A DNA stretch of 62,832 nt, filler included, from Dugesia japonica (lineage: Eukaryota), in NCBI GenBank assembly GCA_001938525.1. It is 6 parts of 6 records of this genome, joined end to end, with 100 filler letters (N's around TTAATTAATTAA, not from the genome) between each part and the next. Parts side by side here need not be neighbours in the genome. Positions count along the whole stretch, not along the records: positions 32,128 to 44,110 come from MQRL01608415.1; 5 more parts are not named here. One strand, given 5' to 3'. Under the pieces are notes generated by a model. It ran no database searches. It saw nothing but the letters and a program-made list of their open reading frames with translations, and had not been told where the DNA came from. Position 1 is the stretch's first letter; the number at the start of each line of letters is the position of its first letter. Positions 12,184 to 62,832 of the stretch are shown one piece after another. Both the position numbers and the translations under genes were made by a program.

Positions 12184-12320
12184 ATAAACAAGTTCAACCA
12201 TGGGGAACTAAAATTTGTGGAATATTATGTTTATATTTTTTATACAAAATGTATCTTAATATTAAATTTGATGTTATAATTAAAGAATTAGAATTAATAT
12301 TTAAAGATTTACTTTAATAA

Positions 12321-14667: not shown

Positions 14668-17600
14668 ATGTCTATAGTAAATAATACGCCTTTTACCTGC
14701 GAATATTGTAATCGAACGTTTAAAATTAAATCTGGTTTTTCATCACATATTAATTCAAAATCATGTCTTAAAATCGATAATTTATTTTGTAATAATTATC
14801 ATAAAATATTTAAAAGTATAAAAGGATTAAAACAACATACAAACTCTGAAATATGTATTCAAAATCTTGGGGGGAAATATCATTACATTGTAAAGAATGT
14901 GATAAAACATTTTCAAAAATATACCAAGCAAAATTACATTATAAAAGTAATTTACATTTACAAAATGTAAAAAACTATAATGAACTAAAAGTAAAAGAAT
15001 TATTTGATCAATTATCTTTAAATGAACCAATTAATTATGAAAATAAAAATATTAAAAGATTATTTAAAGGAAATGCATTTAAAGATTTTTCAAAATCATA
15101 TTTTAAAGATAGCAAAATCAAATTAATTAAAAAAGTTAATCTACACACAGTAGAAGAATTAAAAGACGAAACAATTAATATATAAAACAAATATTTGGAA
15201 TATAGTAAAAAAATGTGCACAAAATTAAGTATTAAAGTTTTGTATATAAAAGAGGGTGAAGGTGAAAATAAAAAATCAACATATAAATATTATTCAAATA
15301 ATAATAAAATTTGCATGTCTTCAAATATTGATCAAATAGTTCAAGTTCAATTAATGGAATTACAAAAATATATTGAAGAGTCTGAAATAAATGAATATAG
15401 ATGGACAATTGAAAAAATAATTGAATATAAAACAGAATTATGTAAATATCAATCATTAGCTGGTTCATCTTATATTCAATTACCATTTAAAAAAACAGGT
15501 GTAATTAATATTATAAATTATAATAATTATAATTTAATTATAATTATTATAATTATAATTATTATAATTATAATTATTATAATTATAATAATTATAATTT
15601 AATTATAATTATTATAATTAATTATAATTATAATTATAATTATAATAATTATAATTATTATAATTATAATTATAATTATTATAATTATAATTATTATAAT
15701 TATTGTTTTATATATGCTGTATTATCACACAAATTTCGATTGGAAAATCCAACATGAGTATCTAATTATACAAAATATATTAAACAAAATTATTTTGATA
15801 TAACTGGAATGACATTTCCAGCAAGAATTGAAGACATAAAAATCTTTGAAAAATTAATTAATTTCCAAATAAATATATTTAATCTATCGCATACACTCTA
15901 GGAAGAAATTAATCTTCAACCGGTTTACATTACATATTACAATATTGATCAAATTGAAAATAAAGTTAATTTATTATATTATCAAGGGCACTATATATTA
16001 TGTAGAGATATTCGGGTATTTTTTACAACAAATTGTAATCAAAATAAAGTTTGCATTAATTGTCTGAATTGTTTTTCTAATAATAATTTATTAGAAAAAC
16101 ATCAAAAAGAATGCATATTTCACAAACCTTCAAATGTTAAATTTGAAAAAGATACTTGGTTCAAATTTAAAAATGATTATTTTATGAACCAAATTCTATT
16201 CGAAATATACGAAGATTGGGAATCTTATACTGATTCTAAAGGTGCTCAACACCCAATTTCAGAAGGGATTCAAATAGTTTCAAAATAAACAGAACTATTT
16301 CAAAATACATATTATCAATATCATGGGAGTGCTGTAATTGATAAATTTAATAAATTTCTATCTATCATAAATTCTAATTAACAGAAATAAAAGATAAAAC
16401 CACTAATAAATATTTCAAATATTTTGGAAATGATCATCCAGAATTTAAACAAAATAAAACAAAATGCAGGTATTGTGATAAAATAATTAAACATGGAAAT
16501 CAAGTTCTTGATCATGATCATTATAATTGAAAATTTAGAGTATATGCACATAATAATTGTAATTTACAAGATCAATCAATTAAAAGATTTTTTATTCCAA
16601 TTCACATGCATAATGCATCAGGATATGACAATTATTTATTTTTTTAGAGAATTATGTGAAAAATATCCAGATGAAATTAAAAAAGTAATTTCACAAAATG
16701 ATGAAAATTATATTTCTTTTGAATTTGGAAATATAAGATTCCTAGATTCATTAAGAATGTTTCCATGTACATCAATAGATAAAATGGGAGAAATGTTAAA
16801 AACATCTAATCATTTTCCAATATTAAAATCACATAAATTAGAACCATAAAAAGCACCTTTTCCATATGATTATATAAAAGGTGAAAATTCAAAAGAAGCA
16901 ATTAAATTATTAAAATCAGATAAAATTTATTAAATTTATTAAAATAAATTAAAACAAAAACATATTTCAAATGATGAATATAATTTATTTTTAAATTTAT
17001 TAAAACATCATAAAAACATGTNNNNNNNNNNACATGTTATATTACATGAAACTTGATGTGGGAATTTTATGAGATTTTTACACGAGTTAAATTAAAATAT
17101 GCAAAAGAAAATACATATTATATATTTATGAAAATTGAAAGAGGCATTAGAGGTGGATTTTCTGGAGTTTGTGGTGAGCGTCAAGTATTTTCAAATAATA
17201 AAAATAAGACTTATAAACAATTAAATAAAGCTCAATTTGATGATTTAATAAAAATGATGAATTCAAATCATGAAATTCCTACAAAATATTTTCAAAATAC
17301 ACATATAAAATATTTAGACGAAAATTCATTGTATTCAGCTTGTATGACAAAATCATTACCTACAGGCGAAATAATTAAATGTGATGATGATATTTTTGAA
17401 TCAAAGATTAATGAAAACATTGAATATTTATATGAAGTGAATCTAGAATATCCACCTGAAATACATGATAAAACTAAATATTATCCATTAGCTCCAGATC
17501 GAATAAATATAACAAACGATATTTTAAGTCCATATCAAAAATAATTTGATCGCAATCAATATAAAACTATTAAATTAACTTTAAATCAATTTGATAAGAA

Positions 17601-18506
17601 AAATTACATAGTATCAGGAAGTACTTAAGATTTTTATTTAAAACAGGGAATGAAATTAAAGGAAGTACATAATAAATATAAAATTAAAAAATGAAACACT
17701 GCTTAAAAGAATATATTGAATTTAATATTAAACAAAGAAATATTGCAAAAAAGTATAATGATAAATTTATTGATTATTTTTTTAAATTATTAAATAATGC
17801 CTTCTTTGGAAAAACATTAGAAGACAGGAAAAGATGCAATATAGATATTGTTTCAAGTGATAAAAACTTCCAAAAGGAAACTAGCAAAATATCATACAAA
17901 GATATTTACAGAAAATCTGACAGCCATGCATATGAGAAGAACTAATTTCAAATATAACAAGTTCCCATATGTAGGGTTTATGATATTAGAGTATGCTAAA
18001 CTGATTATTATGATTTTATAAATAATCAATTAGATTCAGTAATTCAAAATCACCATAAAATACATTATATTGATACTGACTCTATATTTATATAAATTAT
18101 AGAAGATCATAATGTAAATAAAGTTTAAAAATTATTAGGCAATCAATTATTTTAGTTGAAAGACGAAAAACATGATTCTGAAATAATTAAATGTGATTTT
18201 ATTAAAGCAAAATCATATGCATATGAGTATGTTGAAAATCACAAAGATCAAATCAACGTAGACACTAGACATAAAGGTGTGTCTAAATTTAATAATATTC
18301 AAATGGATTCATTTGATAAAGTATTAAATACAAATGAANCCATATATGAAACTAATTTTACTTTAAAATCAAATAAACATCAAATTAGTATACTTGAGCA
18401 AAACAAAATAGATCTTATTGGTTATGATGTCAAGAGATTAATTGAAAATAATGGAATTAGAACATGGCCAAATAGACATCAATTCAAAAGTCAATATTGC
18501 AACTAA
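14668..18506 (+). pseudogene. Polinton/Maverick protein-primed family B DNA polymerase (pPolB), decayed
   Basis: Three C2H2-like fingers; GSSYIQLP..INI; Exo I YEDWES, Exo II HNASGYD; FLDS; FPYDY; RGIRGG; motif A DENSLY; motif B KLLNNAFFGK; motif C YIDTDS; KSYAY; HKGV. Many stops and frameshifts. Confidence 0.95.
15510..15703. repeat. (ATT/ATA)n-type microsatellite expansion inside pPolB
   Basis: About 190 bp of ATAATT/ATT repeats; the reading frame resumes as NYCFIYAV. Confidence 0.95.
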
Positions 18507-23056: not shown

Positions 23057-23156
23057 NNNNNNNNNNNNNNNNNNNNNNNNNNNNNNNNNNNNNNNNNNNN
23101 TTAATTAATTAANNNNNNNNNNNNNNNNNNNNNNNNNNNNNNNNNNNNNNNNNNNN

Positions 23157-25306: not shown

Positions 25307-25545
25307 AATTATATTTGTATGATTACAAACATGTATGATTGTGAATATACTTGCATTATCGCAAACATATTCGCATGATCGCAAACATATTTTCATGATC
25401 CCAGACATATTTGCATGATTACTAACATATTTGCATAATTGCAATTATATTTGTATGATTACAAACATGTATGATTGTGAATATACTTGCATTATCGCAA
25501 ACATATTTTCATGATCCCAAACATATTTGCATGGTTGCTAAAAAA
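25307..25545. repeat. ~20-bp minisatellite (CAAACATATTTGCATGATCG-like)
   Basis: About 12 degenerate units with a 136-bp higher-order duplication (25307 and 25443). Confidence 0.85.
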
Positions 25546-26011: not shown

Positions 26012-26644
26012 ATTATTAATGATGGAAATTAATTTGTAATAAAAATCTACCTTGAATGTTTTTATTGTCATTGATTTTTTGAATCATAAAAATCGGTAGA
26101 GTCATACTTGTACAACTAATAATTTAATGAAANAATTTTTTTAAACATGAATAATCAACTAAAGGATTAAATATTTTCCAATCAGCATAAGAATAAGCAT
26201 AATATGAATGATTAATTATTAAATTATAAAAAAAATTGTAAACTAAACTTCAAACAGTTTAGATCAGCAATTTTTAAATTAAAAAGCACCATAATTGCTA
26301 ATAAAATAAGATTTTATATAAAGTCTCATTTGTTAATATTTTATAATCGATTCTAAATATCACTCTTAAATCTTAAATTGAAAAGCCATTGTAATTCCAG
26401 AATATTTAGTAAATAAATTTTTGTTCGTCTTAATATTTATGAAAAAATATTGTAAANATTTACAAAATGCATTTTTGTTTTACAATTACAATTATTGCGA
26501 GAATAATTGTTGGACTTAACTATTGATCGTATTTAAAATTTTTTGGAAATTGTACGGTAAAAGGTAAATTGCCAAGTAAAAATAATAAATTATAAAAAAT
26601 AATAATTTATTTCATCAGAAAGTTGGTAATAATAATTTATTAAT

Positions 26645-26990
26645 TATTAAATTAAATAATGCATACTATCCAATTAATAGAATGGAATTTAATGTTTAAA
26701 ATAATGAAATGATATTCCAATATTTAGCATATACAACACTGTATAGTGTTGTAAAAATTTTAATCAAGCTCCTCAATTATCATTAAAGGACTTTGGAACA
26801 TTATATCCTATATTTTGTATGGATGTTTCAGTTCAAGATCATAAATTAAATATAATGTAGATGCAACTTTACATATAACAAAAGATACAGATTTCAAAGG
26901 AATGATTTATTGCGTGATATTAGAAGAAAAGCATATTGAAATGAGAATAGAAAGTGGTAAAATCGCTTTGATAGAAAATTTCAGAGGTCA
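26645..26990 (+). pseudogene. Polinton major capsid protein C-terminal fragment
   Basis: LNNAYYPIN..PQLSLKDFG.LYPIFCMD..LHITK..YCVILEEKHIE aligns by eye with LNNNYYPIN..PQLSLQEFG.KYPIFCFD..LHITK..YWCILEEKHVE in ORF 39800. Confidence 0.88.
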
Positions 26991-27064
26991 AAATGTGGCA
27001 CTCCTTGTGCCAATCTTTGATTGTCTAGAGCGAATATCGCCTACCAAGGGTGGTCTAAGGGTGA

Positions 27065-28900
27065 TAGAAGAATACATCTATTTGTAAATATTTCATTGTA
27101 TAATCATACATATATTCATAATTCAATATTCTACAATTTTCATTTGCTTGTAAAAAATCTGGTTCAGATAAATGTTTACTATTTAACATACTATAAAAAT
27201 AAAAAAATTTTCTCTCATCATTGCATTAATTCTTTCAAATGTTTCTTCCATCTTCCGGCAAATATATTCATAAGGATATACTCTTTCATTGGTTTCCCTG
27301 TTGGTAATAAATTATATTTCGGTAATATTTAGGATGGGTCTGTTTCTAATATATTATCTAACTGTTCCAATGAATTGGGGAGTAATCTAACATCCTAATA
27401 CATCAAATTTGAGCTGATATATACTCTTCATCAGTTTTTGCTAAATATTTCTTAAGTAACGTTCCCCTATTAAAATAGTTTTATGAAAAACATGAACATC
27501 ATACTTACTTCCATTGTGAAAGTATAATGGAACACAACTATTTTTTTGCTTACAAGTCACATTCATTATATGATCATCCTCTAAATTTCTCCGAGTAATG
27601 AACATGATCCCTTACTAACATTTAATTGTGAAATTATTGCTTACAATAATAACATGGTGCAATTTCTTTTGTTAATGATGAAACTAGTTCTAATACAAAT
27701 GGATTGTTTATTTGAAGAACTTCTGATAAACTACTTTCTAACTTAACAAGTAGTTCCACAAATTTCTTAGCTGAATCTTCACTATAATATTTTAAGTATT
27801 CAAATTTAATTAAATTTTTTATAATTGCTTTTAATAAAACAATCCGAAACAATGGTTTTTGTAAGCATTCAGTTTGTTTTGAAACTCTTTGGGAGCCTCG
27901 ATATCTGCAAATAAAACTACAAGTATTTTATTTTTTGTCAAATTAAATTTATTNNNNNNNNNNNNNNNNNNNNNNNNNNNNNNNNNNNNNNNNNNNNNNN
28001 NNNAAACTGTAAATAATAATCTTTACGAAACATAGTTTTAAATGGACCATTTTTTATACATAATGATCAATGCTTATATAATATATATTGAGAACTTTTT
28101 GAAATCAAACAATTTAATACTAGATTTACTGATTGATTCAATTTGCTATGTAAATATATAGCAAATTCAGTCAAACTGGCTCAGTCCGTAAATTCTAGTG
28201 TAAAACATGGTAGTGCCTTATTTTTACTTTTATTTACAAAAGTACTTACATTAGTGAACAATACATAATGAGTTTCACTTGTGTTTTCGTCATCATAATA
28301 AAATATATTCGTATAATGTATTCCATCATGTTCAATAACTTTCCAATGAAAATTTTCTCTTATAATTGGTTTAATTGTTTTAAACTTTCATTTAAAATAA
28401 AAGCTTTGATCAAAATTTNNNNNNNNNNNNNNNNNNNNNNNNNNNNNNNNNNNNNNNNNNNNNNNNNNNNNNNNNNNNNNNNNNNNNNNNNNNNNNNNNN
28501 NNNNNNNNNNNNNNNNNNNNNNNNNNNNNNNNNNNNNNNNNNNNNNNNNNNNNNNNNNNNNNNNNNNATAATTAATTGAATTATTATTTAATAAATTTTC
28601 TATAAATATTTTTAATTCTTTATTAGAAGTTATTTTAACAGATTTCAATAAACACCAGAAGAAACATTTATTATCCACATTTTCTGGATTAATAATTGAC
28701 TTATTACAAAAGGATAATTTTAAAAAAGACCCAACTACTGAAAAAATATATTCACAAACAAACATTGAAATTTGATNNNNNNNNNNNNNNNNNNNNNNNN
28801 NNNNNNNNNNNNNNNNNNCTCTCATTCTTTCATCTAATAAATTCTAAAATTTTTCTAATAATTTATCTACATTCCTATTCTCATTTTGTAATTTTGAAAA
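27065..28900 (-). pseudogene. Second pPolB copy, N-terminal/exonuclease half
   Basis: GSFLKL..IINPENVDNKCFFWCLL; CYYCK..VRDHVH (EndoVII-like); VPLYFHNGSKYD; YPYEY; YLQIDV. Confidence 0.85.
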
Positions 28901-31759: not shown

Positions 31760-32360
31760 TATTAGAAATCTTTAAAAATCGAAATCGATATCTTAAAAAA
31801 ATTTAAAACTCTAATTTTTCTTTAAAGTAGAAATTTATCTGATATTAGTTATTAGTTATCTGATATGTAGATGAAATAAATAAAAATAAGTACGTGCACG
31901 AATTCAAGTTATTGTCACTCATACAACAGTTAAATTGTCAAATAAATAATGGATTTCTCAAAAATGATTGATCTATTAAATTTCATTTGAAGCCCGCAAC
32001 TGTTTTATGAAGAGTACAGTTGTCATGNNNNNNNNNNNNNNNNNNNNNNNNNNNNNNNNNNNNNNNNNNNNTTAATTAATTAANNNNNNNNNNNNNNNNN
32101 NNNNNNNNNNNNNNNNNNNNNNNNNNNAAACACACACAAATTTTAAAATTTAAAAATACACACACACCACTAGGATCAAAAAAACTGATCCGATCAAAAA
32201 ATTTTTGATCTCAAAAATCTTAGAAAAAAAAATAACCACAAAATCATAGCACAAAAATCATAGCACAATCGTAATGTGTTTCCGAGCCCCCCGGGGGGGT
32301 GGTCCCGCGATAACTGCTTAAAAAAATGTGCCGATGCGCTACTATCCCCCTACTTACGTA

Positions 32361-32678
32361 ATGTTACAAAATCTATTCGGAAATTAAAAAGGCTGAAATA
32401 TTTATGCAAAAAGTTATTCTTACCAAGGACAATGAGATGACAACTGTAATTGATACTGGAATGCCTCGAGATTATTAACTGTTTAAGATGAATTTATTAC
32501 TAAAGTCAATTATTTCAATTATGTTACAAAACCTATTCGGAAATTAAAAAGGCTGAAATATTTATGCAAAAAGTTATTCTTACCAAGGACAATGAGATGA
32601 CAACTGTAATTGATCCTGGAATGCCTCGAGATTATTAACTGTTTAAGATGATTTTATTACTAAAGTCAATTATTTTTA
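32361..32678. repeat. 160-bp near-perfect tandem duplication
   Basis: ATGTTACAAAA..GTCAATTATTT at 32361 and 32521 with only a few substitutions. Confidence 0.9.
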
Positions 32679-33224: not shown

Positions 33225-34315
33225 AATGGGTAAATTTGAATCTGTGTCACATATTTATCTCAAACCTATATGGAATTGCTGTAATAGACAAAACCAAATC
33301 AATATGGACAGACCTGAAAAGTCCAACAGGGTTCAAAGGAGTGGAGAAACTATGGAAAGCAACACAATTCAAAAAGTGAGATGAAAAAGTGGTTATTGAA
33401 CCAGTCACCATACAGTCTAAACAAGCCAATGTTGAAAGGATTCCCAACAAGACCTTATGAAACTTTTGGTATTGATGATTTATGGCAAATGGATTTGATG
33501 GAAATGATACATTATTCGATATTTAATAAAGGATACAAGTATATTTTGACATGTGTTGATTTATTTAGTAGATTTGCAATAATTGTACCGATAAAATCAA
33601 AATTTGCTAATAAAATAGAAGCTTCAATCAAAAAAACTTTTATAAACGGGCTTCTAGATAATTTGCAAACTGATTTGGGAAAAGAATTTTATAATTCAAA
33701 AGTCAAGAATATTATTAATCATCTCAAGATTAATCATTATTCTGTATTTTCACAATACAAAGCAGCATAATTTGAAAGATTTAATCGAACATTGAGAGAT
33801 GCATTGAAAAAATACTTTGTACTTACTGGTAATGAAATCTGGATACATGTATTACCGAATGTATTCAATAGTTATAATCATACAAGTCATAAGGGATCTA
33901 ATGTAGACCCGTTGATGTATCATCTGATAATTTAATGAAATTATGGCTTTTGAAACAACAATCAAAAGCAATCAAGAAATCAAAATATAAAGTTGATGAT
34001 CAGGATAAAATCTCAAAGATATCAGCTTTACCATTCATAAAGAATTTCGATAGTAATTGGAGTGATTGAGTGTTTTAAATATCAAAAATCAATACCAAAC
34101 CGAACCCAATAATTTATTTGATTAAAGATTATGAAGAAAATATCATTGTTTGGAACTTCTATGAACAAGAAATATAAGTTATTCCACAATCAACAGTATT
34201 TAAAATAGAAAAGATTATCAGATCGAAAAGAATAGGGAAATATAAACAATTATATGTAAAATTGCGTGCATATGAAAAGCCAAGTCGGATATCAGCCTTT
34301 CAAGTTGTAAATTAA
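33225..34315 (+). pseudogene. Polinton c-integrase with C-terminal chromodomain (lineage A)
   Basis: SPTGFKGVEKLWKA, KWL..Q..YSLNKP, WQMDL, YILTCVDLFSR, LQTDLGKEF, ERFNRTL, FYEQE, then FKIEKII..YVK chromodomain-like tail. Confidence 0.93.
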
Positions 34316-34659: not shown

Positions 34660-37600
34660 TGTGAGAATGATATTTTAATTGTTTAATTTCAAATTTATAT
34701 GCGCAGTTAAAATATTTATAAAATCTTTGAAATTTAAAATATTTCAAGAAAATAATTAAAATAATTATTGCGCATATTTGTTGAATATTAAAACTTTTCT
34801 AATTAGTTTTTTATTTGATAGCAACTTAGTCTTAAATAAATGTTTGATGAGGGTAGCGTTTTTTTGCTAATATGGCAACCCGTCATGCTCAAACTTAGTT
34901 ACGCTGAGACCTTTCAAGTTAGGCGACAATCTAAACTGATTCTTGAGGGACGTTGGTCGATTCTTTAAAGTGGCCAAAATTCCCAAAGATTTCCAAGAAA
35001 TTGTAATGGGTAAAATGATTGACCCGAAGCTTGAAGAAAGATATGAAGCATCAGAGAACAAAGTCAAGGGGTATGTAGCTAGGCTATGACTACTGGTGGA
35101 AAGACCAAGAAACGTTTTTGAAGACCTAGAAGAATTCATTAGTTACAGGCAGAGTGATACCAATAAGGAGGTATTTTTTAATCACGTAGAAAAACTGGCA
35201 GATAAACTGCATAGCCATAATCTGTCAAAAGAGTCGTTAATATCAGCACTCCTGGTAAACGCAACGGCACAGAAAAAGGCATAGAAAGATATTCTGATGA
35301 AAAAGGTTTCCGAACCGGAAGAAATAAAGGAAATTATCGGAGACATTTTAAGAATTTCCAAAATGACAGAAGGAATAACCGTGATGCGTAGCTACAAGGA
35401 GGCATTAGACACGGAACCAAAATGAACGATACTAAGGATGCAGGAATCAACCTTCAAAGGGTCAAATACCAGAAAGAAGTTCAGAACAGAGAAAGTAGAA
35501 TGTTGGAACTGTCACAAATTGGGACACATAAGTCGGGAGTGCCCAGAGAGAAAGTCTCCTACATGCTATGCATGTGAAAATGTAGGGCATATAAGAAGAC
35601 AGTTGAACAAGATAAAGTGCGGAAAGTGCAACAAATACGGTCATAAAACCAAAGACTGTTTCACAAAGATGGAGTACAAGAGATGGAACAAATATCCTTC
35701 AAATTATAAGAGAAATGAGGTAAAAAAGCTCCCATATCCGGGTAGACATGTTAACATCAATGCAGGGGAAGATGACGAGACAAGTAACAAGGAATATGAG
35801 GACGACAGATATAAAGACGTTAGATATGGTAACAACAGATATGACGCAAACATATATGAATCAAGGAGAAACAAAAACGGAGAAGCTCCGCTAACAGGGG
35901 AGATAGTAGAAGCTGTAGAACTCAAANTCTAATGGGTGACCCCCAAAATATCGATAGTTATAGTAAAAGTAGTCATATCAATAATATAGAGGATTATGTC
36001 AAAGAACAAGTTTATAATTTTTTAAAGAAAGAGATATCAGTAATCAAGGGAGAAACATCAGCGGAACAAACTATCGCAACAGTGGAAGAATGGGGTAAAG
36101 GTGTGTTTAGATATGATAAAATGCAGGGTGGACCGAGTATTTCGATAAAGATCCAAAACATGGAGTTTGAATGCTTACTAGATACCGTAGTAAGAATTAA
36201 TGTGATGGATTTGGATTTATTTAACAAATTCAAGGATGTCTCGTTATTAACAACCAAGGACAGACTACGGTGCGCTAACGACAGTTCATTAAGCACCAAA
36301 GGAAGATTTGAGGTGGAAGTGAGGATCGGCAATTTGATTAGATGGATTAATTTCATAGTTGTAGAAAAGTTAATCCCTAGCATAATTGGTGGCATTGAAT
36401 TGCAGACCAGTTTTGGATCAGAACTACATTGAATAGATACAACAGAAAGAGATAATCAAGATCGGATTTGCAATATCGAGCCGCATTTTGGAAGGATTAT
36501 TACAGATGAANNNNNNNNNNNNNNNNNNNNNNNNNNNNNNNNNNNNNNNNNNNNNNNNNNATCAAGATCGGATTTGCAATATCGAGCCGCATTTTGGAAG
36601 GATTATTACAGATGAAGAAAGATGCCAAAAAGCTATGAATGAGATAAATACATTTGAAAATGGCACAATCAGGGAGTTGATAAGAAAACATTCTTTATGG
36701 CAGACAAATGGGACATAGGATGCACAAAACTGGTGAAGCATAAAATAGTAACAAAAGGAGGACCTATAAATGTTAAGCCATGGAGAACACTTATGAACCT
36801 TGAGGATAAGATAAACAAAGGGGAACGGAATCTTTTTGAAAATGGAATCATACGAAAGTGCAATTCAACATGGAACACCCCGTTAATATGCATCTGGAAA
36901 AATGAAAAAAAAGATATTCGCCTCTGTCTGGATTTTTGACAGCTGAACGCTATTGTGGAAAGACAAACATTTTCAATGCCAAATGTAGAAGAGATTCTGG
37001 ATAGATTAGGCGGACCAAAATTCTTCAGCTCATTATATTTAGGTAATGCTTACTATCAAGTAGAGCCAGAAGAGGAGTCAAAAGATAAAACAGCTTTTTC
37101 AACAAAGTCAGGTCAATACTGTTTCAATAGAATGCCGTTTGGCATAGTGGCAGCGCCTGGAACATTACAGGAACTCATGACAAAAGTTTTAGGAACAACA
37201 AAAAGAACAACGGTGTATTTAGTCGATATTCTAATATACTCAGAAAACTTGGCAGAGCCTTATAAAACACTGGATGAAGTATTAAGTAAAATACATCAAG
37301 CAGGACTACGTTTGAGCCCGTCAAAATGTCAATTGCTGAGAAAAGATATCAAATTTTTGGGACACATCATAAGTGATAAAGGAGTTCAGACCGATCCAGC
37401 AAAATTAGTGGCAATACAGACATAAGAAAGGCCCAAATGCGTTAAAGGATTGAGAAGTTTCTTGGGGATATGTTGTTATTACAGAAGATTCGTTAAGGAT
37501 TACGCAAAGAAGGTTAGAGAACTAGAAAAACTGTGCAGTGTAAATAAGTTAATATGGACACAGAGTTGCGAACATTCATTCAAAGATATGAAAAAAGCAT

Positions 37601-37760
37601 TGACGAAGCCACCAATTTTAGTGTTTCCAGATGTCAGAAGAGAATTCATACTGGATACGGATGCAAGCTACAATAGAATCGGTGCCATATTATCACAAAT
37701 TAACACCAATGGATAAGAAATGGTGATAGCGTATGGGTCACACTCAATGAATAACCAATG
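34660..37760 (+). mobile_element. Ty3/Gypsy retrotransposon 2: short 5' LTR, gag, protease, RT, start of RNaseH; 3' truncated
   Basis: LTR-like segment TGTGAG.. at 34660-34838; gag from ~34872 with three CCHC knuckles; protease LLDT; RT LCLDF, LGNAYYQ, MPFG; RNaseH LDTDAS..AYGSH. Confidence 0.95.
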
Positions 37761-37873
37761 AATAATTACCATTCCTTAGCACTGCCCACTTATGTATTTC
37801 CTATATATTATGTAAAAAAATTCCATATTTTTTATGAAAAATATCTAATTTAGATAAAAAATAGAAAAATAAA

Positions 37874-38045
37874 AAATTCCCTATGAAAAATTTCCTATGA
37901 AAAATTTCCTATGAAAAATTCCCTATGAAAAATTTCCTATGAAAAATTCGCTAAGAAAAATTTCCAATGAATAATTTCCTAGGAAAAATTTCCTATGGAA
38001 AATTTCCTATGAAAAATCGCGCATAAAAACTTTCGACATAAAAAA
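37874..38045. repeat. 15-bp tandem array (AAATTTCCTATGAAA)
   Basis: About 10 near-identical units directly upstream of the first viral ORF. Confidence 0.92.
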
Positions 38046-38075
38046 TTTTTTTTTACTGAATTATTTCTTTAGAAA

Positions 38076-38558
38076 ATGGAAGAGAAAAAAGATAAACTGA
38101 TTGGGATAGAATTAATTTTAAATACATTTAAAAATATAAGAGATGTAGAAAATGCGAGTTTAAGTGAAATTGAAGCATATACAAAAATAAAAATGACTGA
38201 AGATATAGCAAAAGAAAATTTAGAAGATTTAAAAGATATGCTTAAAACAATTAAACAATTAAAAGTGAGTGAAAAAGAAAAGAAAATGTTTAATTCACTA
38301 ACAACATTTATAATGTCTTTAATAACCGATTNTGACTGTAAAGCTGAGATAGCTGCAAATGCGTGTGATGCATTAAATGCAATAAAAAAAGTTGCGCAAA
38401 AAGAGCGTTATGAACATAATGCAACATTTAAAAAAATAAATGAAGAATTAAAACCACAAATGGTAACTTATGAAGAGGCAGGGTTAAATTTTAAAAAAAG
38501 AAATAGAAAGCATAAAACCGCAAAAGATATGTTGGCATTAACTAATGTTTTTAATTAA
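38076..38558 (+). CDS. Polinton-region hypothetical helical protein, paralog 1
   Basis: 160-aa open ORF; aligns with the next ORF. Confidence 0.7.
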   Translation: MEEKKDKLIGIELILNTFKNIRDVENASLSEIEAYTKIKMTEDIAKENLEDLKDMLKTIKQLKVSEKEKKMFNSLTTFIMSLITDXDCKAEIAANACDALNAIKKVAQKERYEHNATFKKINEELKPQMVTYEEAGLNFKKRNRKHKTAKDMLALTNVFN

Positions 38559-38561
38559 TAA

Positions 38562-39031
38562 ATGGCAGAAAAAAAATTGGGGTGGATTTTATACTTGATA
38601 CAATTAATGATTTAATTGAAGAAAATATAAGTGTTGATAAAATTAGTGAATATAGAAAAAATAAATTAACAAAAGATATAGTAGAAGATAACTTGATTAA
38701 CCTTAATGAAATATATAAAAAAATTAATGAAATTGAAATAATAGAAAAAGATAAAAGTGCGTTTAAATCATTAATGACAGTTTTTATTTTTCAAAATTTA
38801 GAAAATCAATGTCTTAATACTAAAAAAATAAAACCAATAATAATTAGCCATAAAGACATGAGTTTTATATTTACATTAAAAGAAGGTAGAAAACGGCTTT
38901 CCCAAAAAGAGATTATAAATTTTTATAATGATTTAGAAGGGAAACAGAAAATTACTGAAAAATCAAAACGTGTGAAAGTCCCATCATCATGTTCAAGTAT
39001 AATTAGAGCAACAGCTAAAAAATTATTATAA
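38562..39031 (+). CDS. Polinton-region hypothetical helical protein, paralog 2
   Basis: Probable start ATG 38562 (MAEKKLG) with an early frameshift into the 38582 ORF. Confidence 0.65.
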
Positions 39032-39189
39032 AAAATGCCCGGCTCGGTTTTTTTCACAATGAGGAAAAATTATAATTTTAAAAAAAATTCAATAAAAAAT
39101 TTTTGTAAAATTAATTCATTTAATGAAAAAACAATAAAATTTAAATTAAATTTAACATTCCTTAAAATAAAAGAACAACAAAAACTTTA

Positions 39190-39408
39190 ATGGAAAGAGA
39201 TTTTAATGGAAGATTTATTTCATTGGAAGATAGGCTTGAAAAAAAAATAAATGTAATTGTAATGGCAATTGTAGGGGCAACGGTAATAGTGATAGTAATT
39301 GTAATGGTAATGGTGATGGCAAACCCAAAAGAAAAAGGAGAGGAGCAGCAGAGATGGCAAAAATATGTGAGCGGCTTTAAAAAACACACCATTAAAAAAA
39401 CACTATAG
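39190..39408 (+). CDS. Small Polinton-region protein, probably frameshifted
   Basis: After an A-run the alternative frame reads CNCNGNCRGNGNSDSNCNGNGDGKPKRKRRGAAEMAKICERL. Confidence 0.4.
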   Translation: MERDFNGRFISLEDRLEKKINVIVMAIVGATVIVIVIVMVMVMANPKEKGEEQQRWQKYVSGFKKHTIKKTL

Positions 39409-39411
39409 AAA

Positions 39412-40660
39412 ATGGAAGGAAAAATAAATCTCGATAATAATATTATATTTACTCATGAAATGTTAAAAAATGATATTTTAAAAATTTCACCATCATCAAG
39501 CACAATTACAAATTTAATAAAAGATGGGGAGATAATTTTTCAATCTTAACAGTCAACAAATTCATTAGACATTTGTAATGCAATGTTACACTTTAGAATT
39601 GAAATAGAAAATGAAGCCACTAAAATTGCAACTCTAGAAAATAATTTTTTCCCATCTTTATTTAAATTNATGAGATTAAAACTTGGAGCATCTGATGTAG
39701 AAACTATTAATGATCCAGGCACAATATCTACAAAGTTAAATTTTATTACAAGTTATACTCATAGATAAATATATGGAGAATTAACAGGATGGTATTTAGA
39801 TGAAGACCGAAAAAAAATTAAATGAAAAAAAATTTGAAGGATTTTTTCTATTGAGAAATTTATTTGGATTCATGCAAAATGTTAACCGAGTACTTTACAA
39901 CACAATGATTGAATTTAATTGTTATAGACAAATTAATAATAAAATTTTATTTAAAGGAGAAGGGACACCTAATTTAAAATTAATGACTTTAGAATTACAC
40001 ATTCCAGAATGTAGATTGGCACCTAAAATGGAATTAATGCTTGTAGAAAGAATTTCAACTGATCGATCAATTAAAGTTGCATTTTTAAATCGAATAACAG
40101 GTAAAGCAATATTAAGCACAGGAAATTATACTTCTTTAAAATTAAGTATGTTAGCATACAAACCAAGGTATATTTTTATTGCTATGAAAAATGAAATTAA
40201 TTCTTATGCAAATGATGATAATTCATTTATACCAGGGAAAAAAGAAACCAAAAAAGTAGATGGAAAAGACACCTCTGCTGATGTTTATTTAAAAAGTGTG
40301 CAAATACAATTAAACAATAATTACTATCCAATTAATGAATGTAAATTTAATATGGAAAATAATGAAATGTGTTCTCCCTATTTTAATTATTTAAAATGTT
40401 TTCAAGACTTTTTTACAGAGCCGCAATTATCACTTCAAGAATTTGGTGGAAAATATCCTATTTTCTGTTTTGACTTAACAGCACAAGATGATCGATTAAA
40501 TATTAATAATGTAGATATTACACTTCACATAACAAAAGAACCAGAATTTACAGCAAGTGTTTACTGGTGCATTCTCGAAGAAAAACATGTAGAAATAAAA
40601 TTGGTAAATAATAAAATTGCAATGATTGAAAGTGTAAAGGGTGTTGAATTTCAATATTAA
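39412..40660 (+). pseudogene. Polinton/adintovirus major capsid protein (double jelly-roll, hexon-like), frameshifted
   Basis: ~415 codons in three pieces: LDNNII..P..TNL..GEI, LENNFFPSLF..L.LG..VE...PG, L.NLFGF, KPRYIFIAM, SVQIQLN..YP, PIFCFDLT.Q. Located among integrase, ATPase and penton genes. Confidence 0.85.
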
Positions 40661-40664
40661 ATAA

Positions 40665-41114
40665 ATGACCAAGTCAACAAAATTTACATGTGAAAAATTT
40701 AATAGAACTTTGTTAAAAAAAAATAAAGCCCGACATGTAAAACTTTGTAAAGGTGGAGGAGATTTACAATCTTCAAGTTTTATTAGTAATGATTTAAAAC
40801 CTTTTACTTGGAAAAAATACCCAGGTGAGCGAAATTTGTTCCATCATAATTATACCGGACCAGAAACTAGATTAGATATTAGACTCGATGAAAATAATGA
40901 ACCATTACCAGGAGAAGAACCCATTAATCGAATTGATGCAGCAGCACTGAAACATGATATTGCTTATTATTCAGAAGACATGAGAGATCGCCATAATGCA
41001 GATGTAAATTTAATTCATGATATTAATGATATTCCAGATCCTACACCACAAGAAAAATTTCAAGGCACTCTTGTAAAAATTATAATGATTGATAGTAAAA
41101 GGACTGGCAGATGA
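40665..41114 (+). CDS. Parvovirus VP1-type phospholipase A2 domain protein (PLA2X)
   Basis: Ca-binding loop HNYTGP and catalytic helix PINRIDAAALKHDIAY..RHNAD. Confidence 0.9.
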   Translation: MTKSTKFTCEKFNRTLLKKNKARHVKLCKGGGDLQSSSFISNDLKPFTWKKYPGERNLFHHNYTGPETRLDIRLDENNEPLPGEEPINRIDAAALKHDIAYYSEDMRDRHNADVNLIHDINDIPDPTPQEKFQGTLVKIIMIDSKRTGR

Positions 41115-41874
41115 GCTTCATCGAAATTATAGAAAACCAAAACTATTATTAAAAGTAACTGTAAGTGAACCGGATGAAACTTGGTCTGCAGATTTAACAT
41201 TTCATGAAAAAAAAGTAATGTTAACTGTGATTGATCTTTATTCGAGATTTGCATTTGAAGAACTTTGTGAAAATAAAACCGGTAAGGTAATTACAGAAGC
41301 ATTTAAAAGTATTTTAGAAAATAACATTCGTACTCCAAATAATTTATGGGTTGATGAAGGAACGGAATTTTACAACAAAACATTTTCTGATTGGTGTAAA
41401 GAAAATAATATCAATATGTACTCTACTTATAATCATGGAAAAGCAGTTGTCATTGAAAGATTTAATCGCACATTTAAAAACAAGCTCTTTAAACATTTTA
41501 CTCCCGTTGGGAATCAAGAAATCACACAAGAGCTCTTACAGGAAATAGTAGACAACTACAACAACACAGTACATTCTTCAATAAAGACAACTCCAGCAGA
41601 AGCGTATGCAGGGCATAATGTTTTCTATGAGGAAGTCAAAGATGAAAGATCTTAAAAATTTAAAAATAAATTTAAAATAGGAGATAAAGTTAGAATATTT
41701 ATAATTAAACAAAAAACATTTGAAAAAAAATATAGATTTAAATGGTCTGTAGAAACATATTTTGTTACAAAAAATTATTTAACAATTCCTCCCACTTATC
41801 AAATTGCCGATACAAATGGAGAAAGAATTCTTGGAAGATTTTATGAGGCTGAGTTGCAAAAAACTTCTCTATAA
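41089..41874 (+). pseudogene. Polinton c-integrase without chromodomain (lineage B)
   Basis: LADELH, WSADL, IDLYSR, LWVDEGTEF, VIERFNRT; one in-frame stop at 41653-41655, then FKIGDKVRI..FYEAELQK. Confidence 0.93.
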
Positions 41875-41879
41875 AAAAG

Positions 41880-42635
41880 ATGCCTCATTTAGTTTGGAAA
41901 AAAGATAAGGTAATTTTTAGAAATAAACTTTTGCCCAGTAATTTTGGATTGTTGATAATTGGATCTTCTGGTTGTGGAAAAAATTTTCTCTTGACACAAA
42001 TGTTACTTACACCAGGTTTTTTTGATTATGATAATCTTGTATTTTATTCAACTACAATTAATCAATTTGAAGTGCAATTAATTTATTATGCATTTTTAAA
42101 TGGTTTCACAAAACAAGAAATAATATTTATGCTTAATAAGCAAGCGATTGTGCCTAATTACTGCGACACGCCCCAAAAAGTTATAGATTTTTTCATTCGA
42201 AAGAAATTAGTAATAAAAGAACCACAGGTAATAGAAATAATCTTAAGTAGTGATCCATTTAAGATTACTCGCTGTGATGAATTAAAAAAGAATTAAAAAA
42301 ATCTTGTAATTTTTGATGATGTTGTAAATGAAAGAAATCAAGAAGTTCAAAAAAGTTATTTTACTCGAGGTCGACATTCAAATTGTAATGTTATTTATAT
42401 TTCCCAAACATATTTTCACCTTGATAAAAATTCAATAAGAAATNACAGCAACTGTTTTATATTTTTTCGATTAAATAAAAGAGATCGAGATAGTGTTTAT
42501 AGTGATTTATTTTCTTCTGTTTTTCCTAATAAAGATAAATATGATTATGATCAAAATCATCATTGGAGTAAACCTTATACATATTATTATTTAAATCAAT
42601 TAACAAATGAAATAACAACTGATCTTCTTGCTTAG
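41880..42635 (+). pseudogene. A32/FtsK-HerA DNA packaging ATPase
   Basis: Walker A GSSGCGK, Walker B LVIFDDV, FTRGRHSNCNVIYISQTYF; one in-frame stop at 42294-42296. Confidence 0.93.
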
Positions 42636-42639
42636 AAAA

Positions 42640-43705
42640 ATGTCTGATAAAAGTACAAATATCACAGAAGAAGAATTAAGAAAATTAGTAAATTCTAATA
42701 TTAGTAAATAATTAAAATTGATGGCAAAAATTATTGGATTGGTAAAAAAGCAAAAGCAGAAATTAAAAAACATGGGGGGTTATTTTTCTTAGGGGTTATA
42801 CCCGCAATAATTGCTGCTGCTGACAACATTGCAAAAGTCGCAGGTGCAGCTTGTGCTGTTGCAGGTGCTGCAAGCGGAATTTCATCCGCCGTTTCAAATT
42901 CGAGAGATGCATATAAAAAACAACTTGAAATTGAAAAATTACAACGAGAAGTTCCTATAACACCAAAACAAGGGGAAATTTTCAATCTTCTTTTGCTTTT
43001 TTTAACAACAACCTTTAATTTCTGCATTACAACAATTACAACCGGCAGTTCCTCAAACAACAGAAGTAAAACCACTAGAAGTAAAATTTACTCAACCAAA
43101 AATAGAACCATAATTAGAAAGAGAAATGGATTTTGAAAATTTAAACCCATTGATTTTAGAGCGTGAAGAAATTGAAATTAATCATAAATTTTTAAGCCCC
43201 CAAACAACACCAGAAATTATTTATGAAAATATTAATGGAAAAGAGTATCAAGTTATTAAAATTAATAATAATAAAATATATTTAGTTAAAAAAGATGGTG
43301 TCTCGTATTTTTATACAGACAATACCCTTATTCCTTATAAAGACAATATATTTCATTTAATTTTGGGGCATGTAGAAGAACTGGGTTTTTTACATGAAAA
43401 AGATATAATTACTTATTTAACTAAATTTAATATTAAACAACGAAAGAATGGAAAATATGCCACTTTATTGAAATCAAAAGTAAAATCTTTATCAGTAGAA
43501 TCTTTAGCTCCTAAAACAAATAGAAAAAATAACATTTGATGGGAATGGAATAGATTTATTTGAAAAATTAATGGTTTTAATTTCAGCTAAAAAATCAGGA
43601 CATGAAAATGTAGAGAAGGAGATAAAACAAATCTGTAAAAAATTAAAAGCAGAGAAATTAATTTCTAATGAAAAATATAATCATTATCTAAAAAAATATG
43701 TTAAA
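42640..43705 (+). pseudogene. Polinton virion/core protein(s) with KHGG + amphipathic membrane-active segment and C-terminal helical domain
   Basis: Plus-strand frames give KKHGGLFFLGVIPAIIAAA..AGAASGISSAVS, the 43126 ORF, then GNGIDLFEKLMVLISAKKSGH..EIKQI..L. The ORF track shows only the antisense frame at 42731. Confidence 0.7.
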
Positions 43706-44110
43706 TAAAATGTCTCATCAATTTTTGGTTACTGGTAGAAGTCCTAATTTAGAAATTAATTTACAACACCCTTTAGAATTAATTGGAGAATATGAACTTG
43801 GATTAATTTGTTTTTCTTGTTACAATATTATTTTTAATATACAAAAAGAAAATTGTGATTTTATTTATAATGGAGTAAATAATAAAATTCAACCTGGTGC
43901 TTATGAAGTTAAACCAATGGCAGAGAAAATAAAAGACCTTGGAATAATTATAATGNCCGATCTCTCAACAGCAAGATGTTCACTTGAAATAACTCACATT
44001 TTAAAATTCGATGATAAATCTTTCTTTTGTAAACTTTTAGGTTTTACTCCAAAAAAATATACTCCAGGAAAAAAACATTATTCCGAAGAGAAAATAAATA
44101 TTAGTTATAA
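43698..44110 (+). CDS. Polinton minor capsid (penton-like), cut off by the scaffold end
   Basis: HPLELIGEYELGLICFSCYN..NI..N, IQPGAYEV, KLLGF, SEEKINI. Confidence 0.8.
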
Positions 44111-47100
44111 NNNNNNNNNNNNNNNNNNNNNNNNNNNNNNNNNNNNNNNNNNNNTTAATTAATTAANNNNNNNNNNNNNNNNNNNNNNNNNNNNNNNNNN
44201 NNNNNNNNNNCGAAATTAATCTATGACATAATTTGTGTGCAAATAATTTTCCCAAGTAAATACACATAAAAAATACTGGCGCAAGTATTTCAAGAGGAAA
44301 ACCGTCCAAATAGAGCAAATGTTGTAGCAAATCCGAGCCCTAGCAAAACCAAACTCATCATCAGAATCAATCTCTAGCGTTTAGTGCTATGATCCGCTTG
44401 AGCAAGCATGTCAATATTTGTGCAGTTTCTATGAAGATGCAATAATCCGAACTTCATGATGATTATTTCTATCTTTGGTGATTTTTGTACCAAACTTATT
44501 ATTACTTCTGTGTATTTTGTACAAATTTATTTGCTCAACAATTTATTTTTATTTGATTTATATTGTTGTATATAGTTATACAATTTTCGGGACGAAAATA
44601 TTTTGGGAAGATATGTGATGAACCAGGTTATGCATAACATTTAAATTTTACAAATCTTTTATTTTTGTTTAAATTATTTAAGGTTTTGACAAGTTTAAGG
44701 AAATTATTATAAAAATTACTAAAAAGAGGTTAAAATAAAACTTCATTAATTTAAAAGAAAAATAATAAATTACTAAAAATCTAAAATAAAATTGTAGAAA
44801 CTTTTTTGATCTTTTAAATTAGAAAAATTTTGTTACTAAACTTAAGAAGTAAAAATATTATATCCAGGTGGGTGAGCAATTCAAATAATATATAAACAAA
44901 AGCAAGATTGAATATCTTGTGCAAATTTTAATATTATTTTGGGTATAGTTTTTTTATATAGGGCACATATTTTAATATCGTTTTAGACACAATGTTTTGC
45001 GAATTTAAATCTTGGAAAATTTGCGAAGTATGAGGGAGAGAGAGTATTTATATTGAGATGCTAAATTATAAAACCTTTAGAATTTATTTTGGGCAGGATA
45101 ATTGATTCAACGATATATAGTAATTATTTAATTTATTTTGTAATTCTAAGTGAGATAATAAAGCCCCTATCCAGGTAGTTATGATCATTTTTAAAATTTA
45201 ATCTAATAGTCTACATATTTTATTATTGGTTTATCACTGCTTCTAAAAAAGCAGAAAATCGTCTATTTATTATTATTGAATCTTAATTTTATTTTAAAAT
45301 TATAAATTGCAGTTGACTAATTAGCAGAGGTTCAACTGTTAATAAATATTTTAATTATAAGCGAACCGCAAATTAAAAATCTTATTCTTTTATTTCGACT
45401 GGTGTACCAATTAGTTTGAAGCCACCGCTTAAAATACTTCAAAGGTCAGTAGCATTACTGAGACATCGTTCAATATAAAATTAAATAGGATCAAATTATT
45501 GCACTGTACGTCACCAAAATTTAATTAAATTATTTAGATATTTATTTTTATTTATATTAAATTTGTTTTATTTGTTATCGTTTAATAAAAGTTTATTCAA
45601 TAAACCGTCTTAGTTTTTTGAATTATTATTGTTATTTATTATATAATTTATTTATAAATTAATAACTATCATCTACACTCATTTTATAAAATCATTTGTA
45701 GTCAGAAAACCCTTGTTAGATATCTTTACCNACGAGAATATAACAATTATGATAAAGTGAAGGTTGGGAATATTTTATAGCGAATGGTGTAAATATGAAA
45801 AATGAGAATGAACACGATAAAGTAAGCATCAACCAGATAAAGTGAACGAATGGAAGATGATAAAGTATGAATATAATGAACAAGATAAAGTGAAGAGTGT
45901 GAAGATGATTAAATGGATGGTATGAACACAAAAATGACCAAGTAATGTTAAAGAGTGACTAATNNNNNNNNNNNNNNNNNNNNNNNNNNNNNNNNNNNNN
46001 NNNNNNNNNNNNNNNNNNNNNNNNNNNNNNNNNNNNNNNNNNNNNNNNNNNNNNNNNNNNNNNNNNNNNNNNNNNNNNNNNNNNNNNNNNNNNAAGATAT
46101 GAAAGCGTAAAAGTAGTAAATAGAGATGCATTTAAGGACGACTACGACGAGCGCGAATGAGTGTTGATGAAGATGAATATGACGGAGAGGTGTAGAATAT
46201 CATGAGTTTCAAAGTCAGTTAATGAAGCTGGTGTTGTAGATGCGTAGANTCGCCATAATGTCTCACGGTTGTTGGTGTTTGATCACTAACCTCTTTAATC
46301 TTAAACTCAGCGGATACTTTAAAAACGATGTATAAATGTTATTTAAAAATATTAATTTTAATTTTATGAATTGTGTTCGGTTGGTTATAGTTATTTGCAT
46401 TCATCAAATGTTATTATAATGTTATCTTAAAACGTTAGTTTATTAATCTATATTATTTAAAACTGATATAATTTTATAATTTATCGGAGATTATTATCAA
46501 TAGCTTTAGTTCGAATTATTTCATTATTTAATTGTCTCTGAATCATATATGATACTAGAAGTAAAACAAATTATACCTGATTGCATATTTAGAAACTTCA
46601 TTTTACAGAACATTCTGACGAACCACTCACTATGATTCCAGAAACCTAGGGGTTTTTTTTCTTTTAAGCATTATTTTATTATTTCAGTTTCTTTTATTTT
46701 CCTTTATCATTACTTCTTTCAGTCTTACCGCTATTCCAGCACAAAACTTGTTATATTTAAAAATATCAATTTATTTACTTATTTATTTTAATAATTTCTA
46801 ATAATTATTTAAATTATATTCAAATGATTTAAATAATAATCCCCTATATAGATTATTTGAACTTTAAAAGTATTAATAAAACAAAATAAATCAATAAAAT
46901 TATTGAAAAAAGTAGAACTTAAAAATTAATAATGTTCGCAACAAGACGAGAAAATTGCAAAGATTTTTTTAAAATAATAATTAGAAAATCATTCAAATTA
47001 ACACTAAAATTATAAACTGCAAAAATAAAGATGAAAACAGGAAATACATCTCTCAGACTGAAAATAAAAAGAAATAGAATTTTTATTGGACAATTGGAAA

Positions 47101-50040: not shown

Positions 50041-51450
50041 CAGCGGATCTCAAACTTTTTCAACAGCGTAACCCTTTAAAGGCAAACTAATTTCCACGGA
50101 ATCCCAGTAATTATATTTATTAATTTATAAATAAAAAGATAAAAGCAAATAACAACAATAATAAAAAAAACAACTATTTGTATTGGGACGAGTGGGCTTG
50201 TTTCCTATTTTTACATTATTCCTTTATGTCTGGTTTTTTAGAAGACATTTGAATCATCATATCAGCTTCTGCATCGAGTCTGTTGCGATATTTAGTTTTT
50301 GTTGCAGCATATGAAGAAAATCCAGATTCACAGAGATAAGTCGTAGCAAAAGGAAGAAGCATTTTAACAACTTTCATTGATAAATTTGCATATTCCACTC
50401 TTAAAGTGCACCAAAACTCTGACAAAGATATTTTTTCAAATAAGGGCTGTAGTGATGGATCGGAAATCATGTCAATAAAGACTTCGTACTTCTTAACAAT
50501 GAATTGTCCTGGTCTTGAATGGGTTTTTAATCTATGTATGAGTTTTAAGTTTCTTATTCTGCTCATCTGGAAAATACTGTTTCACCGAATTTAGCATATC
50601 TTCCAAATGTTCACGAAAGTCATCATACAACATAAAAAAAATCACTTGCTTCAATGTCGCCATTAGTGAATAAATCTTTAAGTATTGTAAAGCTATCTAG
50701 TCCATGAGAGCTAATTTAAAGGATCATTAATTCCAATTTTTTTAAAAGCTTGAATCTTATCATTGTCTGTGAATATAGTTACTTGTTTTCCTTGAAGTGA
50801 CATATTCACTTCGTTTATCGTCCATTTGCAAAGAAATGTTACAATATTTAAGATGAGATATTAACTCAGCCTTCACGTTGCCTGACAAATCTTTAATTTG
50901 ACGAGTTACTGTGTCATTGGATAATGACACATCAGTTATTTCTTTTTCCGAGTTTTCATCAAGTATACATTTAGCAATATCAACTGCTAGACTTGATTAA
51001 TGTCTTAGTTATTGTATGAGCTTCGCTGCCAGCGCCCCACGATAACTGTATATGTAAGATGATTCAGTGACTCTCTAATTTTTAGTTTTAAAAGTTGAAG
51101 TAATCAGGATTTAGCGCTTAAAGAGTTCATCACGCATACGCATAAAATAATCCACATTCTTATCTTTAAACTCTTTATGTACGGTTTCAAAATGACAGCG
51201 CATTTTAGCTGGCATCATAACACTATTTGGAAATGTTTTACTGCTTAAGGCACGTTAAGACACATTGTTAGCCTCTTCAATACCAAGAGACAGTTGGCAC
51301 TGTTGTTTCATTTTCAGTATTTTTGGATGTAGATGTTTCAGGTGATTTCTNNNNNNNNNNNNNNNNNNNNNNNNNNNNNNNNNNNNNNNNNNNNNNNNNN
51401 AGATCCTGTACCTTTCGCTGTTCCTTTGATAAGCCAACGATCCAACCTTA
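50041..51450 (-). mobile_element. hAT Buster/Charlie-type transposon, internally deleted
   Basis: M.PAKMRCHFETVH (BED), VSLSNDTVTRQI, FW..EY..L..LLPFATTYLCESGFS..KTKYRNRLD; terminus CAGCGGATCTCAAACTTTTT at 50041. Confidence 0.92.
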
Positions 51451-62704: not shown

Positions 62705-62806
62705 TTACGAGAACAATTGTTGGACTTAACCATTGATCGTTTTATAGAATTAATAAAAAATTCTTTAAAACGATCAATGGTTAAGTCCAACAATTATTCT
62801 CGTAAT
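62705..62806. repeat. Inverted repeat with ~40-bp arms
   Basis: ATTACGAGAACAATTGTTGGACTTAACCATTGATCGTTTT / AAAACGATCAATGGTTAAGTCCAACAATTATTCTCGTAAT; single-arm copies at ~26476-26545 and ~47450-47505. Confidence 0.88.
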
Positions 62807-62832
62807 AATTGCAATTGTAAAACAATTATGGC

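Follow-up and report, generated by a model that had tools for sequence, protein, structure and literature searches.

The window analysed here is a stretch of 62,832 nt from the genome of Dugesia japonica (assembly GCA_001938525.1), which carries on its + strand, at 38076-44110, a run of virion genes of the Polinton/Maverick type, hereafter called the module. The window is split into six pieces of 8.7-12.1 kb by five identical 100-nt spacers (12084-12183, 23057-23156, 32028-32127, 44111-44210 and 53985-54084), each made of 44 N, a 12-nt all-frame stop word and 44 N; adjacency across spacers is unproven, and the pieces on either side of one may be unlinked. In a three-frame translation of 37700-44200, 10 reading frames span 6012 of the 6035 bases of the module, with gaps mostly of 1-5 nt, and 10 stop-free stretches of at least 110 amino acids (aa) lie in it, against a mean of 0.01 (maximum 1) in 300 shuffles. 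A Pfam scan of the window, made on 35 frames and later on 83 frames in all, matched PF21738, PLA2 (PF08398), rve (PF00665) and Pox_A32 (PF04665) in the module, in the order given by an initial annotation of this DNA, so that the tightly packed, co-oriented run of virion genes which it had described is found as such. The features of the module, including open reading frames (ORFs) without homologues, are as follows.

37760..38075, no strand: left end region, non-coding, with a 14-bp tandem array (37872-38017, 10.4 copies)
38076..38558, +: ORFan 1, 160 aa, open, with one N
38562..39031, +: ORFan 2, with one frame break near its start
39035..39408, +: two small frames, a 51-aa basic ORF (39035-39190) and a 72-aa ORF with a hydrophobic run (39190-39408)
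39412..40660, +: double jelly-roll major capsid protein; PF21738, E 3.4e-13 (39800-40657), homologues spanning both parts
40665..41874, +: PLA2-like domain (40665-41114; PF08398, E 1.4e-8) and rve integrase (41089-41874; PF00665, E 2.2e-10), likely one fused gene
41880..42635, +: A32/FtsK-like packaging ATPase; PF04665 in two pieces, E 0.009 and 2.7e-5
42640..42968, +: pX-like core protein containing a hydrophobic stretch rich in glycine and alanine; homologue at L003:2595-3161, E 9e-7
42950..43708, +: further conserved core-type protein, start uncertain; homologue at L003:827-1672, E 4e-12
43710..44110, +: penton, N-terminal 133 codons, cut by the spacer; 35% identical to L003:13-783, E 7e-9

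The catalytic motifs of PLA2 and integrase are still legible, including the HDxxY motif of PLA2. The ATPase is 40% identical over 249 columns to that of the metagenomic locus L003, with homologues also in loci L017-L019, and its Walker A motif departs from the consensus at one conserved position. Both the penton and the pX-like gene are supported through their L003 homologues; the latter corresponds to what had been annotated as a membrane-active protein, an activity that it may have, and the Adeno_PX matches of its homologues are weak and below the cut-off. The core-type gene between the pX-like gene and the penton was absent from the initial list of genes. ORFan 1 had no match in Pfam, PHROGs or the fetched proteins, and ORFan 2 had only a Pfam match below threshold (E 0.009), with nothing usable in PHROGs, the Atlas or the fetched proteins. 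The small basic protein annotated at this point is ambiguous: the 51-aa basic frame exists, but beside it stands the 72-aa frame, whose hydrophobic run is encoded by a 6-bp repeat, and neither has a homologue in Pfam, PHROGs or the fetched proteins.

The nearest capsid among ~15 billion proteins is only 44-51% identical. Since capsid-encoding Polintons have been catalogued from a wide range of animals, the virus, annotated as probably undescribed, is at most possibly so. A search of 1.84 billion representatives returned 155 relatives at E ≤0.001, the best 44% identical, and a word-based search returned two, the best 49% identical; none of the 10 top matches looked up bore an informative name. 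Searched against IMG/VR as a single protein, none of seven candidate stretches was confirmed, and as an alignment it found one locus, while against the PDB the protein had no sequence match and the profile one, at E 0.81. An AlphaFold2 model of the unbroken 286-aa stretch, built from a 91-row alignment, reached a predicted local distance difference test (pLDDT) value of 89.4, and both Foldseek and VIA-align put double jelly-roll capsids first. The model matched a PBCV-1 chain with Z 11.5 and a root-mean-square deviation (rmsd) of 3.5 over 242 aligned residues, Sputnik, EhV-201 and faustovirus with Z 10.3 and mavirus with Z 9.4; the alignments to PBCV-1, Sputnik, EhV-201 and faustovirus span 229-242 residues, and BFVD was in agreement. 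The double jelly-roll expected of the major capsid protein is thus borne out. The single jelly-roll of the penton is supported indirectly, through the fold of its homologue L003:13-783, whose model (pLDDT 62.7 from 4 sequences) matched the mavirus penton with a Foldseek E of 1e-6 and Z 11.4 (rmsd 2.9, 121 aligned residues).

A metagenome scan yielded 15 related loci and the IMG/VR scans 1 and 6. Locus L002 holds capsid, PLA2 and integrase in the same order as the window, L003 holds six of the module's genes (capsid, PLA2-integrase, pX-like, ATPase, core protein and penton), and L018 (IMG/VR, 1-15597) is a complete-looking element of 15.6 kb, bounded by terminal inverted repeats of 123 bp, that encodes PolB, protease, capsid, ATPase, PLA2 and integrase. 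In a midpoint-rooted tree of 43 rows, made up of the window capsid, 10 locus capsids and 32 fetched proteins, the window groups with L002 and L003 in a starred clade of 10 rows (100/99), and L017-L019 fall outside it; the fetched relatives P0001, P0003, P0004 and P0188 belong to the same clade. L003 resembles the module in its six genes and in having a fused PLA2-integrase without a chromodomain, but the metagenomic relatives are only 37-56% identical, and the gene orientation of L003 differs. Between its capsid and PLA2-integrase genes, L003 also has a cysteine-rich ORF (L003:4565-5188) with no Pfam match, which we take to resemble an HNH-type nuclease. In another Polinton-like contig, two capsid-like genes stand in tandem (L001:7654-10855).

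The module shares with Polintons/Mavericks (Polintoviricetes) the double jelly-roll capsid, the single jelly-roll penton, the A32-like ATPase and the rve integrase. It differs from typical ones in that PLA2 is likely fused to the integrase, in its two ORFans without homologues and in that PolB, protease and termini are unlinked. Phospholipase is described as common in Polinton group 2, and capsid genes as often fragmented, with 13 of 72 split and 46 full-length (Krupovic 2014, PMC4028283; bioRxiv 10.64898/2026.06.19.733378); Table S1 of PMC4028283 covers 72 elements, and several of those from Schmidtea, Hydra and Nematostella encode capsid, penton and ATPase. With adintoviruses, the module shares hexon, penton, FtsK, integrase, PLA2 and pX-like membrane-active candidates. 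Published accounts of adintoviruses report degraded endogenous copies in many animals, a PLA2X gene that stands separately and has a C-terminal pX-like domain and an integrase that ends in a chromodomain (PMC8502044; PMC11071296). Unlike these, the integrase of the module follows PLA2 directly and ends at 41874, 5 nt before the ATPase, with no Chromo match, so that the adintovirus chromodomain (Buck 2024) is absent, while the PLA2-like gene (Starrett 2021) is present, although likely fused rather than stand-alone. The mavirus virophage is like the module in its capsid and penton folds (Z 9.4 and 11.4) and rve integrase, and unlike it in sequence, the aligned residues being 7-18% identical; nothing shows or suggests that the module depends on a giant virus. 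The module is, in sum, a virion remnant of a known kind, a Polinton/Maverick of adintovirus type that lacks the chromodomain of the strict adintovirus definition, and its annotation as an adintovirus-like, capsid-encoding Polinton is upheld by sequence and by fold. The element itself is ordinary, decayed capsid-encoding Polintons being well described; the PLA2-integrase fusion is the unusual point.

The copy in the window is decayed. Measured against natural homologues, it has at least nine stops or frame breaks in 6.0 kb: one frame break in ORF2; two capsid stops (39547 and 39766) with a capsid frame change near 39810-39827; a frame change (41088-41103) and a stop (41653) in PLA2/integrase; a stop at 42294 in the ATPase; a break near 42709 in the pX-like gene; and a frame change between 43458 and 43544 in the core-type gene. 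The description of the module as near-intact is therefore an overstatement, given these breaks in ORF2 and five core genes and a penton that is truncated at 44110, where the spacer beginning at 44111 bounds the module on the right, and this copy, presumably dead, can make no particle. On its left, about 300 non-coding bases, likely a subterminal part of the element (37760..38075), adjoin a Gypsy RNase H that stops at ~37758. No inverted-repeat partner for 37746-38075 occurs anywhere in the window, the right end of the element being missing, and neither a continuation of the Gypsy RNase H nor a duplication was found that would order the insertions of module and Gypsy.

PLA2 and integrase had been annotated as two genes; both domains are there, but homologous sequences suggest that they are probably the two halves of one. 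In L003, they lie in one frame of 472 codons, and L017 also has them in one ORF. A search with the L003 PLA2-integrase gave 665 matches, and 87 of the best 120, which include L003's own protein and a fused protein from the coral Oculina patagonica, had both PF08398 and PF00665; 99 of these 120 match both halves in the window, and the closest homologue, P0188, is fused and has 64% (PLA2) and 53% (integrase) identity to the window. The PLA2-to-integrase distance in the window, 160 nt and out of frame, is below that of all 62 measured homologue linkers (at least 58 codons), and the first ATG of the window integrase frame, at 41218, lies past the first catalytic aspartate. A GG or GxG motif is present in 81 of 88 measurable linkers; the rate in 4400 control windows taken from the integrase part is 1.5%. 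The motif occurs also in the pX-like and core proteins of L003. The adenain-type protease family cuts after glycines, and we therefore read this motif as a candidate adenain-type protease site. The integrase ends within 15 aa of its last conserved motif in 71 of the 120 homologues and is longer in 11, the remaining 38 lacking the motif; most of the closest relatives are devoid of a chromodomain. As a single protein, the L003 fusion found no locus in IMG/VR, and no description of a PLA2-integrase fusion was found in the literature searched, subscription papers and Repbase reports lying outside that search.

Sister copies of the module are numerous. Nine of the 24 listed sequencing runs, from four studies, contain part of it, the best with 34% of the sampled words; no RNA run is listed among the nine, which counts neither for nor against expression. 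Four runs (X1 and X2, with DNA-type contigs, and the RNA runs X10 and X14) were mapped on 36561-44110 at 85% likeness. In X1, 14,751 contigs mapped, 1150 of them at ≥99% likeness, 3159 at 95-99%, 6608 at 90-95% and 3834 below, counts that include 1.2 kb of Gypsy; X2, with 13,895 contigs, showed a similar pattern. Over the genes for capsid, PLA2, integrase, ATPase and penton, summed depth lay in the thousands and rose to as much as 35,843; over ORF1 it was ~200-300, while single listed contigs had a depth of ~5-37, far under the summed depth over the core genes. We read the mapped depth only as many copies, with divergent subfamilies. The module belongs, as one copy among many, to a large family of this genome, whose members are mostly 90-95% alike. 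At 597 places over 7550 bases (of which 1.2 kb is Gypsy), at least a fifth of the mapped depth differs from the window. Of the 2330.8 depth units that X1 has at the first capsid stop, 2312 differ from the window and ~19 agree with it, so this stop is both real and private to the module copy. That intact relatives may exist, as had been suggested, holds only insofar as nearly all sister sequence lacks this stop. The family is almost absent from the two RNA runs: 16 reads of 10.5 million in X10 and 48 of 11.6 million in X14 mapped (samples of 6% and 25% of these runs), 15 and 42 of them only partly, and RNA depth is zero from 39837 to 41348.

Taken together, these data indicate that the module is very probably the left part, decayed and integrated, of a capsid-encoding Polinton/Maverick that belongs to a large family, with PLA2 and integrase likely forming one fused protein. 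Several observations weigh against this. PolB, protease, inverted repeats and a target-site duplication, the last being a Polinton feature, are not linked to the module copy, which ends at a spacer; the penton fold rests on a homologue model of modest confidence; and the summed depth is not a copy number, contigs losing rare variants. As to the fusion, its count is biased by a fused query, by score-ranked matches of 259-826 aa only and by the non-independence of related sequences; GG/GxG might be no more than a conserved terminus of the PLA2 protein; and no indel at the PLA2/integrase junction is among the sister-contig differences listed (12 of 13 rows), a list in which larger differences would not appear, since they fall among loose ends. 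A split form exists, since L018 encodes PLA2 and integrase in separate, overlapping frames with an ATG of their own and L019 likewise changes frame in this region.

Alternatively, the family may natively keep PLA2 and integrase apart, or link them through programmed frameshifting, in which case the junction in the window would be no lesion. The arrangements in L018 and L019 agree with this, as do the separate PLA2 and integrase genes of the Sf Mavericks (PMC5803895). We consider it unlikely, given that no ATG precedes the first catalytic residue in the window integrase frame and that the closest homologues are fused. Frameshifting at the window junction is unsupported as well: no slippery heptamer lies in the overlap 41089-41114, only upstream at 41055, and L018 and L019 shift by -1, whereas the window shifts by +1. 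In L018, the two frames overlap by 37 nt at an A-run, which is followed by a stem-loop (-15.4 kcal/mol, calculated without a control).

The window holds other Polinton pieces besides the module, as listed here.

12186..12317, +: maturation protease, C-terminal tail with the catalytic-cysteine region, beginning at the spacer; its 35 aa at 12186-12290 are 43% identical to L018:8471-8983, E 2e-5
15018..18490, +: decayed protein-primed PolB with an endonuclease VII-like insert; tblastn with L018/L019 PolB, E to 3e-22
26589..26988, +: second capsid fragment (C-terminal), ~52% aa and 69% nt identity to the module capsid
~27067-28900, -: second PolB fragment, directly joined to the second capsid fragment
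33290..34250, +: second Polinton-type integrase, 34% aa identity to that of the module, of a different family

Contrary to the initial statement that PolB and the maturation protease are not in this scaffold, a decayed PolB and a protease tail thus occur in the window, across spacers from the module and probably in another copy. The PolB piece, whose motifs A, B and C lie at 17311, 17784 and 18066, aligns with the N-terminal half of the L018 and L019 PolB, an OTU-like domain at the N-terminus being part of the adintovirus definition (Buck 2024), and has an Atlas score of 0.97 to PolB clusters (PF03175 on 16-84% of members). In Pfam, PF03175 reached only E 6e-4, below the cut-off, and the PolB frames, with stops written as X, matched only zf-BED and endonuclease VII, both weakly; the L018 and L019 PolB also miss PF03175. 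A word-based search with the piece (0 of 197) is superseded by the Atlas and tblastn matches, and the protease tail had no Pfam match when searched alone. The stretch 12186-18490 also contains a coiled-coil-like ORF (12321-12770), two ORFs without matches and a C2H2 zinc-finger pair (14668-15182), and its PolB is interrupted by a 189-bp ATAATT microsatellite (15516-15704).

That the module and this piece at 12.2-18.5 kb are the two halves of a single insertion, parted by assembly, is suggested by the identical 100-nt spacers at which both end and by their common strand, and together they would supply all core Polinton genes. We nevertheless regard such a link as improbable. The PolB piece has 20.7% GC against 26.1% in the module, and at least 12 breaks plus the microsatellite in 3.5 kb against at least nine in 6 kb; it lies, with the protease tail, two spacers from the module and is unlinked to the module copy, and other Polinton families lie in between. 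Because it is more AT-rich and more broken than the module, PolB at 15018..18490 probably belongs to another, older Polinton copy, and the protease tail at 12186..12317 probably also belongs to a copy other than the module. The joined capsid and PolB fragments at 26589-28900 are a third, rearranged Polinton remnant. The second integrase is preceded by a 160-bp tandem duplication (32361-32675) and followed by a weak penton-like start (E 0.003), and the remnant to which it belongs is cut by Gypsy at ~34830.

The module could also be taken for the provirus of one undescribed virus that inserted recently and is still almost functional, as long open stretches persist at 26% GC, the PLA2 and integrase catalytic motifs can be read and the nearest database capsid is only 44-51% identical. 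This is very unlikely in view of the lesions, of the 597 differing places with most contigs 90-95% alike and of the few, mostly partial RNA reads; the proposal of a relatively recent insertion is likewise weak, given private stops and hundreds of differences from sister copies. That the breaks are errors in a low-quality assembly of an intact element, as single Ns, many gaps and the disagreement of nearly all reads with the window at many sites might suggest, is scarcely credible, since X1 keeps the window letter at roughly single-contig depth (16-21) at several differing sites, the first capsid stop included, a 192-bp contig is identical to the window at 43220-43411, and four of the breaks are in-frame stops rather than homopolymer slips.

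For the decayed Polinton favoured here, a way of life may be sketched from known relatives. According to PMC4028283 and PMC8502044, the capsid, penton, ATPase and protease of Polintons build and mature the particle, the integrase inserts the genome, and PLA2 and pX-like proteins are candidates for membrane passage; insect cell lines reportedly release Polinton particles (PMC8502044). In working members of the family, an icosahedral shell would be built from capsid trimers and penton and filled with the linear genome by the A32 ATPase, and an adenain-type protease would mature the core proteins, while the PLA2 and pX-like proteins could aid membrane crossing on entry and the rve integrase would then insert the genome into host DNA, the step by which the family presumably spread. 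The PLA2-integrase fusion is predicted to be packaged as a precursor and cut at the GG/GxG linker, so that the integrase would arrive with the genome. It is a possibility, though a tentative one, that a widespread, undescribed Polinton lineage packages a PLA2-integrase precursor from which protease frees the integrase at GG/GxG, the window then containing a decayed copy of one of its families, which reached a high copy number in one host. If so, this would be a DNA-virus counterpart of retroviral Gag-Pol, delivering a ready integration enzyme on entry, and the Polinton genome would be integrated after entry by a particle-borne integrase rather than by one made after infection. The high copy number marks this host as one in which to seek natural Polinton activity.

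Around the Polinton pieces, Pfam matches identify Gypsy, non-long-terminal-repeat reverse transcriptase, mariner, hAT and ISXO2-like remnants, and it is among these that the module is integrated; together with the oligo-dT libraries of the sequencing runs, they point to a eukaryote. Pfam recognised no host gene among the 83 frames scanned, and there was no Rfam match. The remnants are the following.

34830-37758, 5000-7750 (-) and 58270-60064 (-): three decayed Ty3/Gypsy elements, with gag zinc knuckle, protease, reverse transcriptase, RNase H and integrase matches
2683-2916: ISXO2-like transposase
9995-10312: reverse transcriptase
50219-50581 (-): hAT dimerisation domain
58000-58236 (-): mariner transposase

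Simple and dispersed repeats also occur. A 20-bp tandem array lies at 25311-25533, and a 43-bp dispersed repeat is present in three copies, at 26491, 47463 and 62701, one arm of which is also found in an inverted pair (26470-26544 with 62756-62830).

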